Made by a program: the position numbers and the translations under genes. 20,165 bases of DNA, taken from a virus (lineage: Duplodnaviria; Heunggongvirae; Uroviricota; Caudoviricetes). The DNA lies in IMG/VR virus record IMGVR_UViG_2648501150_000043, positions 1 through 20,165 of that record; one strand, written 5' to 3'. The notes beneath the pieces were generated by a model. It saw nothing but the letters and a program-made list of their open reading frames with translations. It did not search any database and was not told the origin of the DNA. Below are positions 4,690-13,876 of this stretch, piece by piece (the first letter of the stretch is position 1; each line of letters opens with the position of its first letter).

Positions 4690-4706
4690 ATTACCTTTTA
4701 GGTAAT
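4690..4706. promoter_or_regulatory. Perfect 17-bp palindrome ATTACC-TTTTA-GGTAAT (operator-like site, isolated copy upstream of portal operon)
   Basis: Exact inverted repeat read in sequence; same motif family as the sites flanking the repressor gene; TTGACA at 4670-4675 lies just upstream. Confidence 0.5.
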
Positions 4707-5778: not shown

Positions 5779-5792
5779 TGTGACATGTCACA
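5779..5792. promoter_or_regulatory. 14-bp perfect palindrome TGTGACATGTCACA
   Basis: Exact palindrome 4 nt after the 143-aa gene stop; a 12-bp copy GTGACATGTCAC recurs at 8296-8307, and GGCACATGTGCC at 4742-4753 shares the ACATGT core. Confidence 0.35.
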
Positions 5793-5795
5793 TTC

Positions 5796-5821
5796 AGCCC
5801 GCCGATGCGCGGGCTTTTTTG
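5796..5821 (+). terminator. Rho-independent terminator: AGCCCGC-CGATGC-GCGGGCT hairpin followed by TTTTTT
   Basis: 7-bp GC stem plus 6-T run on plus strand only. Confidence 0.65.
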
Positions 5822-5862
5822 TATGGCATAATCACTCATTCGATTATCACAGCGAGTGGACC

Positions 5863-6144
5863 ATGAAAATTAAACAAAAAATTGTTAATACCTTTGTGAA
5901 CTCAACCCATGAGTGGAACATGGCCATGCACAATGCCATTGAAAGAAAGGTATTTGAAGGATTTGAAAGCACATTCCCTAATGGATTAAAAGACCCTGCT
6001 GAGACCGGTGAAAGAATAGAGTCAATGCGTGCATTCTATTATCAGCGCATGATGAATACCGCATCACTTTTGCTAACTGGTGCGTCACTAATCATTGCAT
6101 TAGTTGCCTTGGTTGTAGCTCTGATATCAATTCACTATGCATAG
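5863..6144 (+). CDS. Hypothetical small membrane-anchored protein (93 aa) with C-terminal transmembrane helix; the track ORF starts earlier at 5785
   Basis: Hydrophobic stretch SLLLTGASLIIALVALVVALISI at C-terminus; visibly AT-rich codon usage compared with neighbours; 3' end overlaps terL 3' end convergently by 10 bp. Confidence 0.5.
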   Translation: MKIKQKIVNTFVNSTHEWNMAMHNAIERKVFEGFESTFPNGLKDPAETGERIESMRAFYYQRMMNTASLLLTGASLIIALVALVVALISIHYA

Positions 6145-7610
6145 GGGTCGTATTCTGTCAACGCCTTGCCCTGCTGGCTTTGCTGTCCTGGTATATTCAT
6201 ACGTTTCGACACCGGGAAAGCAAACGTCAGCAGCAGCGCATCACCCTTGCCAGGAGAACGGCCTAACCGCTCTTTGATATCTTCCTTCGGCTCAATAACT
6301 ATCTTGCCGTCCACCCTGACTTTGTACTCAGCCGCCGACAGGTCGTCAGCCGTTTCCTGGTCATCCAGTGCGCCACCAATTTTCAGCCACGTTTTGCAGC
6401 TGTTGAACATCTCGCCGCGCTTGTTGAGCATCTGCGGATCGGTAGAGCCGCCGCCGAAAGGTATCAGTTGCCAGGAACGGCCCCAGCCATCACCGATTGA
6501 CTTCAGCCCGGTACCATACCCGAAGTCGATGAATACAGCGTCAGCCTGGTACTGGTCTTCAAAATCAGCGATACGCTTTGCCATAATCAGATCATCGGTT
6601 GTCTTATTGCCGGTCCATAGCACTTTGCTGTGAAGCCCCTGGCGCAGGTATATCACCGCGTCATCCACACCGGAATACGCCGGGTCAACACCGATAATCA
6701 CCGGAGCGTGCGCCACCTGCCCGGCTGTCACCACGCGCTTCATTGCGGAATCAGTCAGGCCTGTCGGGATAAACTGGAGTTCAGACGCATCAGGGAAGAT
6801 CCCGCGTACACGAACTTTCACGAAGTCGCTATCCTCGCCGTAGTCATCAACCCACTTCTGCAACTGCTGCTTGTTGGTGCCTTCCACGGTGCGGCTGTCT
6901 ATCTGCGCGCACTTCCAGCGGTGTTTGTATTTGCGGAAGCATTCACGGAAACGCCCGGTGTTACGCGTAGGGTTCCCGAACGCCACCCAGATGATTTCGG
7001 TGTCTTCGTCCGTCAGCGCACCCTCGGCAACTTCCCACACCAGATCGGCAATGTTGGACGCTTCATCGAATACAACGATGATGCGCTTGCGTTCGTTGTG
7101 CAGACCGGCGAACGCCTCGGTGTTGTGTTCAGACCATGGAATAGCATCAGCGCGCCAGCGTTTGTCGTGACCGGGATCGTTGCTGTACATCGCGGTGGCG
7201 GTGCAGGTGAACCACTCTTTCGTGATAGCCAGGTTCGACCATTTGATGATTTCAGGCCATGTTTTGGTGCGCAGCTGGTTGTCGGTGTTGGCGGTCACCA
7301 CCACCTTGCAGTCTTCACAGGTAGACATGCCCCAGTTGATGAGCATCGAGATGAACGCAGATTTACCGATACCGTGGCCGGATGCGCGGGCCAACATCAG
7401 CGGCTGGTGACGCGTTGCTGGATTCTGCAGGTGATCGCGTATCTCGCGGAATGCGTCTGCCTGCCATTTTCGCGGGCCGGTGGCATGCGCCAGTTCTGTC
7501 CCCTCTTCGCCCCACGGAAACGCATACAGCGAATAGCCCAGCGGGTCATATGTGAACGATGCAATATCCTCGACAAGCTGCTCTTCCGGCGACATGGCTG
7601 CGGCTGTCAT
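6135..7610 (-). CDS. terL: Terminase large subunit (491 aa)
   Basis: Walker-A-like GHGIGKS near N-terminus, nuclease-like acidic C-terminal half, size, ATGA overlap with upstream small terminase gene. Confidence 0.9.
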   Translation of the reverse strand: MTAAAMSPEEQLVEDIASFTYDPLGYSLYAFPWGEEGTELAHATGPRKWQADAFREIRDHLQNPATRHQPLMLARASGHGIGKSAFISMLINWGMSTCEDCKVVVTANTDNQLRTKTWPEIIKWSNLAITKEWFTCTATAMYSNDPGHDKRWRADAIPWSEHNTEAFAGLHNERKRIIVVFDEASNIADLVWEVAEGALTDEDTEIIWVAFGNPTRNTGRFRECFRKYKHRWKCAQIDSRTVEGTNKQQLQKWVDDYGEDSDFVKVRVRGIFPDASELQFIPTGLTDSAMKRVVTAGQVAHAPVIIGVDPAYSGVDDAVIYLRQGLHSKVLWTGNKTTDDLIMAKRIADFEDQYQADAVFIDFGYGTGLKSIGDGWGRSWQLIPFGGGSTDPQMLNKRGEMFNSCKTWLKIGGALDDQETADDLSAAEYKVRVDGKIVIEPKEDIKERLGRSPGKGDALLLTFAFPVSKRMNIPGQQSQQGKALTEYDPYA

Positions 7611-8200
7611 TCTTCACCACCATCCAGCTCTTTCACGCGACGGCGGGCCTTCGCCATGCGGTCGGCAATCGTTACTGTGCCGGAAACCTCCATGCGCTCT
7701 TTGAACGCATTGACGTCGACGTGCTTACCGATAAGCTCGAGGTTCTTCACCTTGTCAGGCCATTTGATTTTTTTGAGGATTGTTTCTATCGAATCCTCGT
7801 TCATATTCATGATGGTCGATGACAAATCGAAACCGCTCAGTGTAGTACGCCATATCTTTGGCCACTCGCGGATAGGCTTCAGTGTGCCGTCATCGTTCAG
7901 GATATCGATCACGTCCATCTGGTCAATTTCCACCAGGCGGAGCAGTACGTAGTCCGCACTGACGCGCAAACGCTTGTTACGCTCTTCCATCAGTTCGGCG
8001 ATCCGTTTCTGGATACGCTCATCACGCATCATGACACTGGCCTTGACTGCCGCCGTATTTGGCGAAAATCCTGCGTTAATCGCTGCCTGAGTCTGATTCT
8101 CAGGGCATTTGGTATATTCCTGCGCGTAAGCCTCCTGCATCGCTGTAATTGGCTTATACTGCGTTGATTTGCGTTTTGGTGCTTTTGGTTCTGCGGGCAT
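7607..8200 (-). CDS. terS: Terminase small subunit, P27/Terminase_2-like (about 197 aa from ATG 8200; the track ORF extends to 8248)
   Basis: Motif QEAYAQEY...TQAAINAGFSPNTAAVKAS typical of small terminase DNA-binding domain; GGTGG RBS 5 nt upstream of ATG at 8200; the longer 8248 start would add a hydrophobic junk peptide and cover the operator. Confidence 0.85.
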   Translation of the reverse strand: MPAEPKAPKRKSTQYKPITAMQEAYAQEYTKCPENQTQAAINAGFSPNTAAVKASVMMRDERIQKRIAELMEERNKRLRVSADYVLLRLVEIDQMDVIDILNDDGTLKPIREWPKIWRTTLSGFDLSSTIMNMNEDSIETILKKIKWPDKVKNLELIGKHVDVNAFKERMEVSGTVTIADRMAKARRRVKELDGGEE

Positions 8201-8219
8201 TGTTACCACCGAAGTAATA

Positions 8220-8236
8220 ATTACCGTTTTGGTAAT
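8220..8236. promoter_or_regulatory. Perfect 17-bp palindrome ATTACC-GTTTT-GGTAAT about 20 bp upstream of the terS start codon, flanked by further TTACC/GTAAT half-sites (8203-8243)
   Basis: Exact inverted repeat; sits between a minus-strand terminator and terS RBS. Confidence 0.5.
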
Positions 8237-8240
8237 AGTA

Positions 8241-8272
8241 ACACGCAAAACAAAGCCGCCATAGTCGGCGGC
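8241..8272 (-). terminator. Hairpin GCCGCC-ATAGTC-GGCGGC with T-rich tract (TTTGTTTTG) on the minus strand; intrinsic terminator or possibly part of a packaging (cos-like) site
   Basis: 6-bp GC stem and T-run read on minus strand; location between upstream early genes and terS. Confidence 0.4.
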
Positions 8273-8303
8273 CTTTGCAATTTATTGTCTCTATCGTGAC
8301 ATG

Positions 8304-8642
8304 TCACACCGCTAGTTTAGTATCATGCCAGCCACGCGTCACCCAGCATGCCGAATCACCATCACACGGACACGACTCAACTGGCAGCGCATCGCCACAT
8401 TTCCCGCAACGGTTAGAGCTGATTGACTTGATGCGCCCACGAACCCGCGCATCATCCTGGCGTATAAGCAACGCGATGTACTCGTTCATGTCATACGGCG
8501 CCCGACCAGGGCGACGGGCGGCGCAGTTTCTCGCCAGCATCTCCAGTTCCTGCTCGTCTAGTTGCAATTCCAGCTTGCGGTTACCAGATTCAGCCTGGCG
8601 GGCACGCTGCGCTGCTTTGCGCTCTGCTGCGGATTTAGCCAT
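8304..8642 (-). CDS. Hypothetical protein with basic N-terminus and C-terminal Cys-rich zinc-ribbon (CGKCG ... CPCDGDSAC), about 112 aa from ATG 8642
   Basis: ORF with internal ATG at 8642 preferred over 8690; last gene before terminase; stop codon overlaps GTGACATGTCAC palindrome. Confidence 0.5.
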   Translation of the reverse strand: MAKSAAERKAAQRARQAESGNRKLELQLDEQELEMLARNCAARRPGRAPYDMNEYIALLIRQDDARVRGRIKSISSNRCGKCGDALPVESCPCDGDSACWVTRGWHDTKLAV

Positions 8643-8727
8643 CACCAAATCCCCATTCCAGAGGCAGCAATTAACTGGCAGATAGCGCACATAGCCAGCG
8701 TAATAACAACCACTTTAACTGGCGGCA

Positions 8728-9435
8728 TCACTTATCCCCTTCTGACAGTTTTTGCATAGCTCCGGCGTAACGCTGCATCCCATGTTCAAGCGCTGATTTC
8801 ACCTCCTGCTGCGGTGCTGCTGGAAGTGGCATCCAGTGAGTTGGCGTCCATGATGCGCCATACACTGTCCATTTCCCTGCGAGCCAATAACCTACCTTCT
8901 TGCGCCAGTCACCAGGACCATCAAATTCTTTGGTGCATAAAACTTCTTCGCTTCCTTCAGGTATCCGCTCGCTTACCGGAATCCAACCATCCGGAGTCAC
9001 CGGAGAGTTGCCAGTCTGAAGCATGGCAGAGCAGCATGCGTTACCTCTGCGCTCATACTGAATTCCATGCACTGCTAGCACAGCCATCAACTTTTCTATC
9101 TGAACAACGATACCCTCACTGCTGATGAATTCATTCGGTAGTTTCACTACTGGCGATGACTGCGGTCTGGCGTAAAGCGGTATACTCCTATGACTTGGTA
9201 CTCTGTCTCCATCTGAAATTTGATACCAATCGCCTGGTTTCTCTGCGTAGAAGTAACCAACAGGATCAGCACCAAACGAAGCAATCGCTCCATCAATCAC
9301 CTTCACAGCATCAACCATTGCGTAGCCGAGATTACCGCCGTCGCTTTGTGCTGCTGCTTTACTGAGTATTTCGCTTATCTGGTGCAGGCGATCGAGTGAT
9401 ACAGGGCCGTTCGCCGGGTGGTTGTTAGTTGTCAT
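8728..9435 (-). CDS. DUF551 domain-containing phage protein (235 aa)
   Basis: C-terminal GWIPVSERIPE ... THWMPLP motif characteristic of DUF551 (recall); ATGA overlap with HNH gene. Confidence 0.7.
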   Translation of the reverse strand: MTTNNHPANGPVSLDRLHQISEILSKAAAQSDGGNLGYAMVDAVKVIDGAIASFGADPVGYFYAEKPGDWYQISDGDRVPSHRSIPLYARPQSSPVVKLPNEFISSEGIVVQIEKLMAVLAVHGIQYERRGNACCSAMLQTGNSPVTPDGWIPVSERIPEGSEEVLCTKEFDGPGDWRKKVGYWLAGKWTVYGASWTPTHWMPLPAAPQQEVKSALEHGMQRYAGAMQKLSEGDK

Positions 9436-9803
9436 GCTGACGCTCCTTCTTGATATTTTTCGAACCAGAACACCACTGGGTCAGATTTCATTTCAACCAA
9501 CCCCATACGAACTAGCGCTTTTCCTTTCCCGGACACAAGGAATTCACGACGACCATCACCGATAATTCGCCGGTAATCTTCCAGGCTACTGCAGTGTTTA
9601 TGCAGATTGCATGGGTGACAGGCCGGAACCATATTTGCCTCATTGTCGTTTTCTGCATGAATCATGCCGCCTCCGTTCATGTGCCTAAGAACTGGCTTTA
9701 CATGGTCTGCATGCCATTTATCTCCAAGCTCACACCCACAGTAAGCACAGCGACCGCCAAACTTCATGCGTAGCTCTGCACGTTGTTTTTTCGTCAGTGC
9801 CAT
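9432..9803 (-). CDS. HNH endonuclease (123 aa)
   Basis: CAYCGC ... HADHVKP ... N ... H ... CHPCN zinc/HNH motif pattern; typical terminase-proximal HNH of cos-type phages. Confidence 0.85.
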   Translation of the reverse strand: MALTKKQRAELRMKFGGRCAYCGCELGDKWHADHVKPVLRHMNGGGMIHAENDNEANMVPACHPCNLHKHCSSLEDYRRIIGDGRREFLVSGKGKALVRMGLVEMKSDPVVFWFEKYQEGASA

Positions 9804-10178: not shown

Positions 10179-10643
10179 TTATTTGATACCGATCCCGTGC
10201 CTGGCGATTAACAGCGCATCAGCTATGGCCTGACCTTTCGCTTTTGCATCCAGCGCCCTGAGTTCCGGGTAGAGCTGAATTGCTCTGCTGCGTGCCGCGT
10301 CCTTGTCACTTCCGATGAGACCGGCTGACTTCTTCCAGGCCTGCGGCGTTACCAGCGTGTACGGAATGTTGAGACCCTGCAGGATCCCCTCCGCTACCCC
10401 AGCGGCATGACCGAACGTGAACATGCTCGCCGTTCCCTGCCCTGGCATTGCGCCCACCTGCTCGAGGTATGCGTGCGTAATTCCGTACTTACGCAGCCAT
10501 GCAGCCACCGCTGCGCCGTTGACTCTGGACTTTGTCCCAACCTTGATGGTCGGCATTGCCAGGTGGTCGATGTATCCGCCCTGCTCAGTTATCAGGACCA
10601 GAGATCCGCTGCATCCTGGGTCAATCCCTAATACTGCCGCCAT
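10179..10643 (-). CDS. RuvC-like Holliday junction resolvase (154 aa)
   Basis: N-terminal LGIDPG, central EQV, C-terminal DAADALLIA..H motifs matching RuvC-family catalytic residues (recall). Confidence 0.8.
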   Translation of the reverse strand: MAAVLGIDPGCSGSLVLITEQGGYIDHLAMPTIKVGTKSRVNGAAVAAWLRKYGITHAYLEQVGAMPGQGTASMFTFGHAAGVAEGILQGLNIPYTLVTPQAWKKSAGLIGSDKDAARSRAIQLYPELRALDAKAKGQAIADALLIARHGIGIK

Positions 10644-10707
10644 GATTTACCTCTCAGGTAATTTAAAACCACAAATGGGTTAATTTCAATAGCAATGCGC
10701 ATATTTT

Positions 10708-10724
10708 ATTACCCTTTTGGTAAT
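10708..10724. promoter_or_regulatory. Perfect 17-bp palindrome ATTACC-CTTTT-GGTAAT between the P-like gene and the resolvase gene; a degenerate copy (TTACC-N6-GGTAAT, 10646-10662) abuts the resolvase start codon
   Basis: Exact inverted repeat in intergenic region 10644-10760; weak hairpin plus T-run on minus strand at 10741-10756 just upstream. Confidence 0.5.
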
Positions 10725-12677: not shown

Positions 12678-12911
12678 TTATCGGTCGTAGAAGAAGAGCA
12701 CTAATTCAGGTTTAGACTTTGTCCATTCGCGGGAGCGACATGCTTTAAACAGCCCGTCCATCAGTCGCTTACCCGGCATCTTGCGGCGCCCGGTCAGGTG
12801 AGTCTGGATGTAATGACTGGTGGTTCCGGCTTCATCTGCAAATGCTTCACGCTCATCAGGAGACAGTCCCAGCCAGTGCTTTTTGAAATCAAATTTTTTT
12901 TCGTCACTCAT
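12678..12911 (-). CDS. Cro/cII-like HTH transcriptional regulator (77 aa), first gene of the rightward early operon
   Basis: Divergent from repressor gene across operator cluster; HTH-like segment AFADEAGTTSHYIQTHLTG; size typical of Cro. Confidence 0.55.
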   Translation of the reverse strand: MSDEKKFDFKKHWLGLSPDEREAFADEAGTTSHYIQTHLTGRRKMPGKRLMDGLFKACRSREWTKSKPELVLFFYDR

Positions 12912-12945: not shown

Positions 12946-13013
12946 AATTATTACCTTTCTGGTGAAAAAATCAATGATTATTACCGTTATGGTAACTTTA
13001 CCTTTATGGTAAT
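12946..13013. promoter_or_regulatory. OR-like control region: three ATTACC-N5-GGTAAT-type sites (12950-12966 imperfect, 12980-12996, 12997-13013) overlapping a minus-strand promoter (-35 TTGATT at 12974-12969, 17-bp spacer, -10 ATAATT at 12951-12946)
   Basis: Palindromes and hexamers read from sequence in the divergent intergenic region between Cro-like and cI-like genes. Confidence 0.6.
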
Positions 13014-13066: not shown

Positions 13067-13663
13067 ATGAAAAGTATTTATGACATAAGACGCAAAAACC
13101 TTAACGAAATCATTCGCCGGGATTTCGATGATACCCAGTTGCGCTTTGCCGAACGTGTGAAGCGTTCGCAGAACCTGGTCAACAGGTGGTGCACTGGCAT
13201 CAAAAACATCGGACCAAATGCAGCGCGTATCATTGAGGAAGCAGCGCGCAAAGAAAAGTTCTGGCTTGATGTCGATCACGAACTGGACGCGGTACAGGCT
13301 GATATCTTTATTCCGGCCACTGATGATGGCGAATGGACTGTAGAGAAGCAGGCTGCAGCCACGCTCAATGCCTGGATGAGAAAGAACACGGAAATGACAT
13401 CAGAAAAGAAAGTTGCTGTAGCAGCTGGTATTGGCCCGGCCACAGTTAACCGGATTATGAAAGCGGAAGTCAGCACAACTATCGGCGTTCTTTCCTCCCT
13501 GGCGCGCGCGTTCGGGCATGAAGCATACGAGATGATTATTCCCGTCGGCGCTCCTGGTGTTATCGACTACGACCACAGGTTGTATGCAGCTCTGCCTCAG
13601 GAAGAGAAAAACAAGATCACCTCATTCATTAACTTCGTGTTTGAGCAGAACAAAAGCAAGTAA
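13067..13663 (+). CDS. cI-like prophage repressor with two HTH-type regions and no LexA/S24 autocleavage domain (198 aa)
   Basis: Flanked on both sides by triplets of the same palindrome; divergent from Cro-like gene; HTH-like segments at N-terminus and around residues 120-150; no Ala-Gly/Ser-Lys protease signature seen; possible -10 TACAAT at 13057-13062 only 4 nt before ATG (leaderless-like). Confidence 0.65.
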   Translation: MKSIYDIRRKNLNEIIRRDFDDTQLRFAERVKRSQNLVNRWCTGIKNIGPNAARIIEEAARKEKFWLDVDHELDAVQADIFIPATDDGEWTVEKQAAATLNAWMRKNTEMTSEKKVAVAAGIGPATVNRIMKAEVSTTIGVLSSLARAFGHEAYEMIIPVGAPGVIDYDHRLYAALPQEEKNKITSFINFVFEQNKSK

Positions 13664-13730
13664 TCCCCCGCCATTCTGACGCTTTACCTGCCCGATGGCG
13701 GTAAGCTCGCGCCTCACGCAATTACCAAAA

Positions 13731-13876
13731 CGGTAATTTTTTTCTCGTCATACCTATTGACACAATCACTTTTTGATCTGATTATTACCCAAAAGGTAAT
13801 ACATGAGCGCATCGCTCAGGCAGAAACCACCACTTCGTGGTTTTCCTGCATCTCCAGGTATTACCAAAATGGTAAT
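13731..13876. promoter_or_regulatory. OL-like control region: three perfect ATTACC-N5-GGTAAT sites (13731-13747, 13794-13810, 13860-13876) with a plus-strand promoter (-35 TTGACA 13767-13772, 17-bp spacer, -10 GATTAT 13790-13795) overlapping the middle site
   Basis: Exact palindromes and consensus -35 read from sequence; regular 63-66 bp centre spacing. Confidence 0.6.

Follow-up and report, generated by a model that had tools for sequence, protein, structure and literature searches.

A predicted terminator and a candidate repressor-controlled promoter upstream of terS in an epsilon15-type prophage

We analysed a stretch of viral DNA of 20,165 nucleotides (nt), positions 1 to 20,165 of IMG/VR virus record IMGVR_UViG_2648501150_000043 (the window in the following), and in particular the short region at 8201-8307 that precedes terS, the gene for the small terminase. 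Our results suggest that this region probably consists of a transcription terminator followed by a repressor-controlled extended −10 promoter for terS. By its sequence, the region appears to form the boundary between an early (replication/nin-like) operon and the packaging/head operon. The window itself is, as judged from similarity, an epsilon15/phiV10-type (Uetakevirus) prophage, a temperate phage of the epsilon15 kind; in a megablast search with 7000-9500, terS and terL of epsilon15, SPN1S, SPC32H, phiV10, Tyrion, PAT1 and others were matched with 80-91% identity. Genes are directed along the minus strand from position 1 to about 12,900. For comparison, relatives with a similar terS were collected from genomes and viral contigs, yielding 88 loci and then another 79 (167 in total, with some contigs present in both sets). 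They stem from Citrobacter, Pseudocitrobacter, Erwinia, Scandinavium, Klebsiella, Superficieibacter and Pseudescherichia in addition to Salmonella and E. coli types.

According to the arrangement that we propose, minus-strand transcripts from an early promoter near cro would stop at the terminator at 8275-8247, just past the gp49-like gene. Transcription would restart near 8228 from the extended −10 element TGtTACTAT (8243-8235), which adjoins the U-tract of the terminator and would act without a −35 element. Two adjacent dyads of 17 base pairs (bp) would cover this promoter and the whole 28-nt leader: O1 (8236-8220) overlaps the −10 element by 2 bp and contains the presumed start, and O2 (8218-8202) overlaps the ribosome-binding site. 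In the lysogen, the repressor Rep, reported to bind DNA as a tetramer, would occupy O1 and O2 and silence terS and terL, and the terminator would insulate the packaging operon from upstream read-through. Once the prophage is induced, repression of this operon would be lifted directly.

The hairpin with a T-run that a preliminary description of the region had placed upstream of terS was indeed present and was the top-scoring terminator-like site of the whole window. On the minus strand, its DNA (8275-8252) reads AAGGCCGCCG-ACTA-TGGCGGCTTT followed by GTTTTGCG; the corresponding RNA is AAGGCCGCCG-ACUA-UGGCGGCUUU followed by GUUUUGCG. It thus has the G+C-rich stem-loop (10 pairs, 6 of them G-C, with a 4-nt loop) and the adjoining U-rich tract on the transcribed strand that characterize intrinsic terminators. 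The predicted RNA fold of −18.2 kcal/mol (z = −3.3) was equalled by 2 of 200 shuffled sequences. The hairpin starts 28 nt past the TGA stop codon of the gp49-like gene (8306-8304) and lies on the same strand, which is the placement and orientation expected of a terminator. In the epsilon15 record the orthologous stem-loop at 39646-39672 is annotated as a rho-independent terminator, and the phiV10 record has a putative terminator feature at its end, at the same junction. When presence of the hairpin was scored over 70 unique contexts among the relatives, 52 contained it and 18 lacked it, all of the latter retaining terS. From its sequence and from these annotations the hairpin appears to be a canonical minus-strand terminator, whose efficiency in ending transcription we infer.

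Downstream of the hairpin, the motif TG-n-TA-nn-AT running directly into TACC-N5-RGTAA was found before terS in all 167 related loci, a layout that was thereby invariant across at least eight enterobacterial genera. The nine-mer occurred as TGTTACTAT, TGGTACTAT, TGATAGTAT, TGATACTAT, TGTTAGTAT, TGTTACCAT, TGTTACAAT or TGGTATTAT, and the hexamers found were TACTAT, TAGTAT, TACAAT, TATTAT and TACCAT. TG as well as T1, A2, A5 and T6 were invariant, and variation was confined to the −13 base and to hexamer positions 3 and 4. As these are the positions at which a promoter tolerates change, the variation follows the tolerance pattern of an extended −10 element. In the window, too, the sequence has the TG at −15/−14, the single base and the hexamer with T1, A2 and T6 that define the sigma-70 extended −10 type. 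The register between −10 and operator is the same as in the sequence GATTAT directly followed by TACC of a PL-like promoter at 13757-13785, and the motif was kept in the 18 of the 70 unique contexts without the terminator and with a UmuD-like gene upstream. A −35 element was not found for this candidate promoter, P_terS, and a simple sigma-70 scan reported no promoter between the hairpin and terS; because of these two results we treat P_terS as a candidate, with a predicted transcription start near 8228.

O1 had been described as a perfect palindrome. Its 6-bp inverted arms are perfect (ATTACC-GTTTT-GGTAAT), but the 5-bp spacer is asymmetric, so that the element is an interrupted dyad. Window positions 8235-8220 correspond to positions 12-27 of epsilon15, which are annotated there as a protein_bind feature with the label "repressor; lysogeny". 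The further half-sites reported to reach the ribosome-binding site and start codon of terS are real and together form the degenerate dyad O2, which on the minus strand has the sequence ATTACT-TCGGT-GGTAAC (ATTACTTCGGTGGTAAC). O2 covers the Shine-Dalgarno sequence GGTGG (8210-8206), and a single nucleotide separates its end from the ATG of terS (8200). The centres of O1 and O2 are 18 bp apart, and those of the dyads at 12980 and 12997, next to the repressor gene, 17 bp. Across the relatives, the arms of O1 were conserved and its spacer was variable. The arms of O2 were mostly conserved, O2 being replaced in the variant seen in L034 and L109, and the O1-O2 spacing shifted by 1-2 nt. Conserved arms together with variable spacers and a lack of compensatory changes are the pattern expected of a protein-binding site. 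O1 is thus, by all these features, a true member of the operator family and was annotated earlier in epsilon15; Rep would be expected to bind it.

The family to which O1 belongs extends over much of the window. A search for ATTACC-N5-GGTAAT with at most 2 mismatches gave 13 matches compared with 0.29 expected, a number reached by none of 100 shuffled sequences. Triplets of dyads flank the repressor gene in what is, on sequence grounds, the classical OR/OL layout. A PR-like promoter, TTGATT-16-AATAAT (12974-12947, minus strand), overlaps the dyad at 12950, as the PL-like promoter TTGACA-17-GATTAT (13757-13785) does that at 13784. Between the dyads at 10646 and 10708 sits a promoter-like sequence, TTGAAA-18-TAAATT (10689-10660, minus strand). 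The "repressor; lysogeny" features of epsilon15 are located at 12-27, 2931, 19895, 32479/32554/32616 and 35906, which are the orthologous terS, portal, tailspike, OL and RuvC positions; the OL-like cluster of the window is orthologous to the three sites within 32479-32632. In phiV10 the same motif occurs at the same places, including a terS-proximal pair at 86 and 104, and both phages have members of the family before the tailspike and lysis genes as well. The dyads of the window therefore share the features of epsilon15/SPC32H-type operators, namely the 17-bp dyad, clusters that flank the repressor gene and overlap promoters, a cognate repressor encoded in the same genome and an orthologous annotated site. 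The motif is kept in phiV10 even though its repressor reportedly shares no more than 42% identity with the epsilon15 one (PMC9782041). Rep is described as a tetramer on palindromic DNA (PMC9638917), which fits adjoining dyad pairs such as O1/O2 and 12980/12997.

Two further observations concern the arrangement of the dyads. Centre-to-centre spacings are 62 bp for the pair 10646/10708 and 63 and 76 bp within the series 13721/13784/13860; those of 62 and 63 bp are close to six helical turns, and a tetrameric repressor could loop the DNA between such sites. At 1859, 8202, 10646 and 13784, an ATG follows the right arm GGTAA at a distance of 1-2 nt, so that the arm also contributes to the Shine-Dalgarno region.

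The recurrence of the dyad, the similarity of the repressor to SPC32H Rep and the dyad and terminator annotations of epsilon15 support the primary interpretation given in the preliminary description. It had proposed that early transcription ends at the hairpin, which has comparative backing from the annotated terminator of epsilon15 and the putative one of phiV10. It had also postulated a packaging promoter overlapping the operator, and the extended −10 element, invariant in the related loci, is a candidate for it. Direct repressor control of the head/packaging operon is likewise predicted from the membership of O1 in the family that flanks the repressor gene and from the annotation of its epsilon15 counterpart as a repressor site. 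The features on which these statements rest are listed in Table 1.

Table 1. Features of the window that bear on the junction upstream of terS
Feature	Position	Strand	Remarks
Operator O1, ATTACC-N5-GGTAAT, 0 mismatches	8220-8236	either	matches epsilon15 protein_bind "repressor; lysogeny" 12-27
Operator O2, degenerate dyad, 2 mismatches	8202-8218	read on minus	epsilon15 29-45; phiV10 104-120
Candidate extended −10 element TG-t-TACTAT (P_terS)	8243-8235	minus	closing two bases are the opening two of O1
Intrinsic (rho-independent) terminator, predicted	8247-8275	minus	stem-loop 8275-8252, then tract UUUGUUUU; end of early operon
Palindrome GTGACATGTCAC, exact, 12 bp	8296-8307	either	just upstream of the terS-side terminator
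Second palindrome-plus-terminator module	5780-5815	plus	GTGACATGTCAC at 5780-5791, terminator at 5796-5815
Prophage repressor, presumed binder of the 17-bp dyads	13067-13663	plus	97% identical over full length to SPC32H Rep, PDB 5D50, E = 4e-128
cro-like gene	12678-12911	minus	
OR-like operator cluster	12950-13013		sites 12950, 12980, 12997; between cro-like and repressor genes
OL-like operator cluster	13721-13876		three perfect dyads at 13721, 13784, 13860; just past repressor gene
Operator pair upstream of RuvC-like gene	10646-10724		dyads at 10646 and 10708, 62 bp apart; epsilon15 site 35906 annotated
Perfect operator dyad upstream of gp3-like and portal genes	4690-4706		orthologous to annotated epsilon15 site 2931-2947
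terS, small terminase, 197 amino acids	7607-8200	minus	Pfam Terminase_2, E = 2.9e-27; opens packaging/head operon
terL	6135-7610	minus	phrog_2; downstream of terS
gp49-like open reading frame, 112 amino acids, Cys-rich C-terminus	8304-8642	minus	final gene of early/nin-like operon; phrog_536 "transcriptional regulator", E = 5.6e-52
DUF551 open reading frame	8728-9435	minus	
HNH open reading frame	9432-9803	minus	Pfam PF01844, phrog_2118; about 1.2 kilobases upstream of terS
RuvC-like open reading frame	10179-10643	minus	

Several points weigh against the proposed combination of a terminator and a repressor-controlled promoter. With no −35 element, no report by the sigma-70 scan and a hexamer that agrees at 4 of 6 positions, the extended −10 element may have little activity or need an activator. 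Within the model, O2 is less well supported than O1; as it is degenerate, replaced in some relatives and shifted by 1-2 bp relative to O1 in others, cooperative occupancy of both dyads is uncertain. In the variants with a UmuD-like gene, no terminator separates upstream transcription from terS, and read-through can evidently also feed terS. Finally, simple repressor control of every structural operon leaves the delay of late expression unaccounted for, and a separate late regulator or antitermination may be involved.

Part of this evidence also speaks for a different explanation, in which the dyads are repressor or Cro sites without a promoter. Early transcripts would then read through into terS after antitermination at the hairpin, and the bound repressor would act as a roadblock or silencer in the manner of the stoperators of mycobacteriophage L5, or would mask the ribosome-binding region on the DNA. 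In addition to the missing promoter signals and to the relatives with a UmuD-like insertion, in which upstream genes and terS follow each other without a terminator, this explanation can draw on the dyads located immediately before the start codons at 1859, 8202, 10646 and 13784, and on the conserved palindrome just upstream of each terminator, which could mark an antitermination system. It does not predict, on the other hand, that TGnTAnnAT is invariant in the 167 loci and varies exactly where a −10 element tolerates variation, nor that dyad and motif share the register found at the clear PL-like promoter. Moreover, the dyads are symmetric, whereas L5 stoperators are reportedly asymmetric and orientation-dependent, and the open reading frames (ORFs) scanned included none that was recognisable as an antiterminator of the N or Q type. 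We therefore consider a region of operators without a promoter unlikely, though by no means far-fetched.

The preliminary description had offered a second possibility, namely that the symmetric GCCGCC/GGCGGC element is part of a cos-type cleavage site, given an HNH endonuclease gene about 1.2 kilobases (kb) upstream of terS. The HNH gene was confirmed (PF01844, 9432-9803, minus strand), and the idea can be widened to a packaging recognition or cleavage site in general, with the GCCGCC/GGCGGC hairpin functioning in an HNH-assisted cos site or with TTACC/GGTAA serving as TerS-binding pac repeats. The region adjoins terS, its short repeats are clustered like the R sites of lambda cosB or the hexamers of P1 pac, and several GenBank records of relatives start within it. 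The record starts, with window equivalents of 8200, 8246, 8275, 8282, 8301 and about 8321, differ by depositor and are annotation choices, not mapped ends. An HNH gene was present in the 2.5-kb upstream flank of only 9 of the 88 relatives, and in the window two ORFs lie between it and terS, so that the conserved HNH gene adjacent to the terminase genes of HK97-type cos systems has no counterpart here; the HNH ORF is best regarded as an accessory gene of the nin-like region. The hairpin, too, is dispensable in the 18 contexts that keep terS without it. A pac role of the half-sites is contradicted by the presence of the 17-bp dyad at nine or more other places in the window, including both sides of the repressor gene, because a packaging site in or next to terS should be unique and this motif recurs genome-wide.

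The type of packaging in this family points in the same direction. TerL is likened in record annotations to Sf6 gp2 and P1 PacB, which are headful enzymes. The virion DNA of Tyrion, whose terS is 92% identical, is circularly permuted with terminal redundancy, a sign of headful packaging (PMC5754475); unique cohesive ends are thus lacking as judged on this relative, not on the present prophage. As TerL had no match in Pfam, NCBIfam or PDB sequences, the basis of the headful assignment is the record annotations together with the Tyrion study. Taken together, these results leave a cos or pac site at 8201-8307 highly improbable.

We regard it as equally far from likely that the inverted repeats act as RNA, with hairpins in the terS leader hiding the Shine-Dalgarno sequence for translational control: a predicted fold pairs UUAUUAC with GUGGUAA, has UUCG as its loop and includes GGUGG, yet it reaches only −3.7 kcal/mol (z = −0.75; equalled by 38 of 200 shuffled sequences), arm changes such as GGTAAC in the E. 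coli type and AGTAAT in L007 break pairs with no compensatory substitutions, and the dyads around the repressor gene make sense only as DNA operators. No Rfam family matched 7900-8700 at E <= 1.

The preliminary description had also drawn attention to GTGACATGTCAC at 8296-8307. This is indeed an exact 12-bp palindrome, but it does not belong to the operator cluster; it is a separate, terminator-linked element that recurs throughout the genus. Exact copies in the window are two, at 5780-5791 and 8296-8307, and 145 were counted in the 88 related loci (468 kb). Epsilon15 (L094) has copies at 2142, 19517 and 39612, phiV10 (L095) at 2262 and 19493, and SPC32H (L096) at 2145, 19634 and 38629. In every case inspected, the palindrome either followed a stop codon or contained the stop by means of its own TGA, as is the case for the TGA of the gp49-like gene (8306-8304). 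In epsilon15, phiV10, SPC32H and for both window copies, an intrinsic terminator followed it after 0-21 nt, as read in the direction of the T-run. The positions concerned are the ends of the gp49-like gene, of an antisense moron beside terL and of a gp18-like gene before the tailspike region. The records of relatives that were compared carry no annotation for it, and in a scan of viral contigs with a 14-mer for the palindrome, Uetakevirus matches were mixed with chance ones. As RNA, the palindrome forms only a weak hairpin (−2.9 kcal/mol, z = +0.55); because neither it nor the terS leader folds better than shuffled sequences, readings at the RNA level were dropped. A sigma-70 site that includes the palindrome, GTGACA-17-TAAATT (8307-8279, minus strand), was considered as a late promoter and rejected: its start would lie within the terminator stem, it matches at 9 of 12 positions, and the spacing is lost at the other palindrome copy.

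At that other copy, TGGCATAAT (5824-5832), which resembles an extended −10 element, comes directly after the plus-strand terminator (5796-5815); next is a small antisense ORF at 5863-6144 on the plus strand between terL and the portal region. The succession of a terminator and a TGn−10 element is like that before terS, without an operator. For the ORF, the start at 5863 is more likely than the listed start at 5785, as the latter would run through the terminator. The antisense ORF is possibly a moron that the lysogen expresses.

A possible role for the module of palindrome and terminator can be sketched, though we hold it to be doubtful. Uetakeviruses would lack a late activator of the lambda type, and all structural and lysis operons would have the same kind of boundary; a stop codon, GTGACATGTCAC and a terminator would close one transcription unit, and a Rep-controlled promoter would open the next. 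A factor of its own would then bind the palindrome on the DNA, adjust termination at these three or so boundaries and thereby time the late genes. Judged by position only, the Cys-rich gp49-like protein is the foremost candidate for such a factor and binder, since the stop codon of its own gene lies inside one GTGACATGTCAC copy.

The gp49-like gene was located upstream of terS in 86 of the 88 relatives. Its homologues begin with MAKSAAERK and are, among the matches listed, all at least 83% identical and without names. The protein had no match in Pfam, NCBIfam or PDB, and its AlphaFold model (predicted local distance difference test score, pLDDT, of 55) was too poor for a fold search. In some relatives a UmuD-like ORF with the N-terminus MGFPSPAADY is inserted between the gp49-like gene and terS (L043, 2112-2441; L005, 2083-2442; also L007 and L107-L130). 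This insertion displaces the terminator and leaves the promoter/operator block intact. A divergent upstream gene, which would force a promoter before terS, was sought, and the apparent cases in L005 and L043 turned out to be this UmuD-like gene on the same strand. In loci of the E. coli and Klebsiella types (e.g., L009 and L048), a short conserved frame, M(H/R)DEFDGF*, is present 40-90 nt upstream of terS between palindrome and terminator; it resembles what is left of a longer gene that other relatives have.

Translation of terS starts at the ATG at 8200 and not at the TTG at 8248 further upstream, and the segment 8201-8248 is non-coding, as indels of 1-2 nt occur there in relatives. The terS genes deposited for phiV10 (L095, 41-715) and PAT1 (L002, 1503-2174) are 26-27 codons longer and extend through the operators into the terminator. 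As the indels of the relatives show this stretch to be non-coding, these longer annotations are over-extensions.

Comparison with known systems places the junction closest to that of epsilon15 (GenBank AY150271.2), in which the elements are orthologous in kind, order and spacing, with next to no sequence difference in the terminator, in O1 and O2 or at the terS start. The second dyad (29-45), the promoter proposed here and GTGACATGTCAC are all unannotated in that record, and the flanking nin-region genes differ, the window having the HNH gene and the DUF551 gene. The Rep/Ant immunity system of SPC32H (PDB 5D50/5D4Z) is represented by the nearly identical repressor, whereas the region of the ant gene lies outside the 20-kb window. 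As with lambda OR/OL and tR, the repressor gene of the window is flanked on both sides by dyad operators that overlap promoters, and intrinsic terminators part the operons. A difference from lambda is that operators also precede the genes for packaging, portal and RuvC, and those for tailspike and lysis in relatives; the late operon of lambda is controlled by Q antitermination at PR' and not by CI operators. The stoperators of L5, the sites of gp71, are similar in that many dispersed repressor sites occupy short intergenic gaps and keep structural genes silent in the lysogen. In L5, the sites are 13-mers without symmetry that lie within transcribed regions and block elongation in one orientation, whereas the window has symmetric 17-bp dyads, several of which overlap promoter-like elements. 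HK97-type cos systems also have an HNH gene near the terminase genes, but that of the window is neither adjacent to terS nor conserved, and the family packages circularly permuted DNA (PMC5754475).

A terminator and the main repressor site before terS were thus already known in kind and in orthologous position from the epsilon15 record, and taken alone the main finding adds little, as it rederives that annotation from raw sequence. What goes beyond existing records are the conserved extended −10 element, the second dyad over the ribosome-binding site and the unexplained module of palindrome and terminator, the last of which is the one element able to lead to something new. If the packaging, head, tail and lysis operons are indeed under direct control of the repressor, this would be a design of a temperate phage unlike the lambda cascade.

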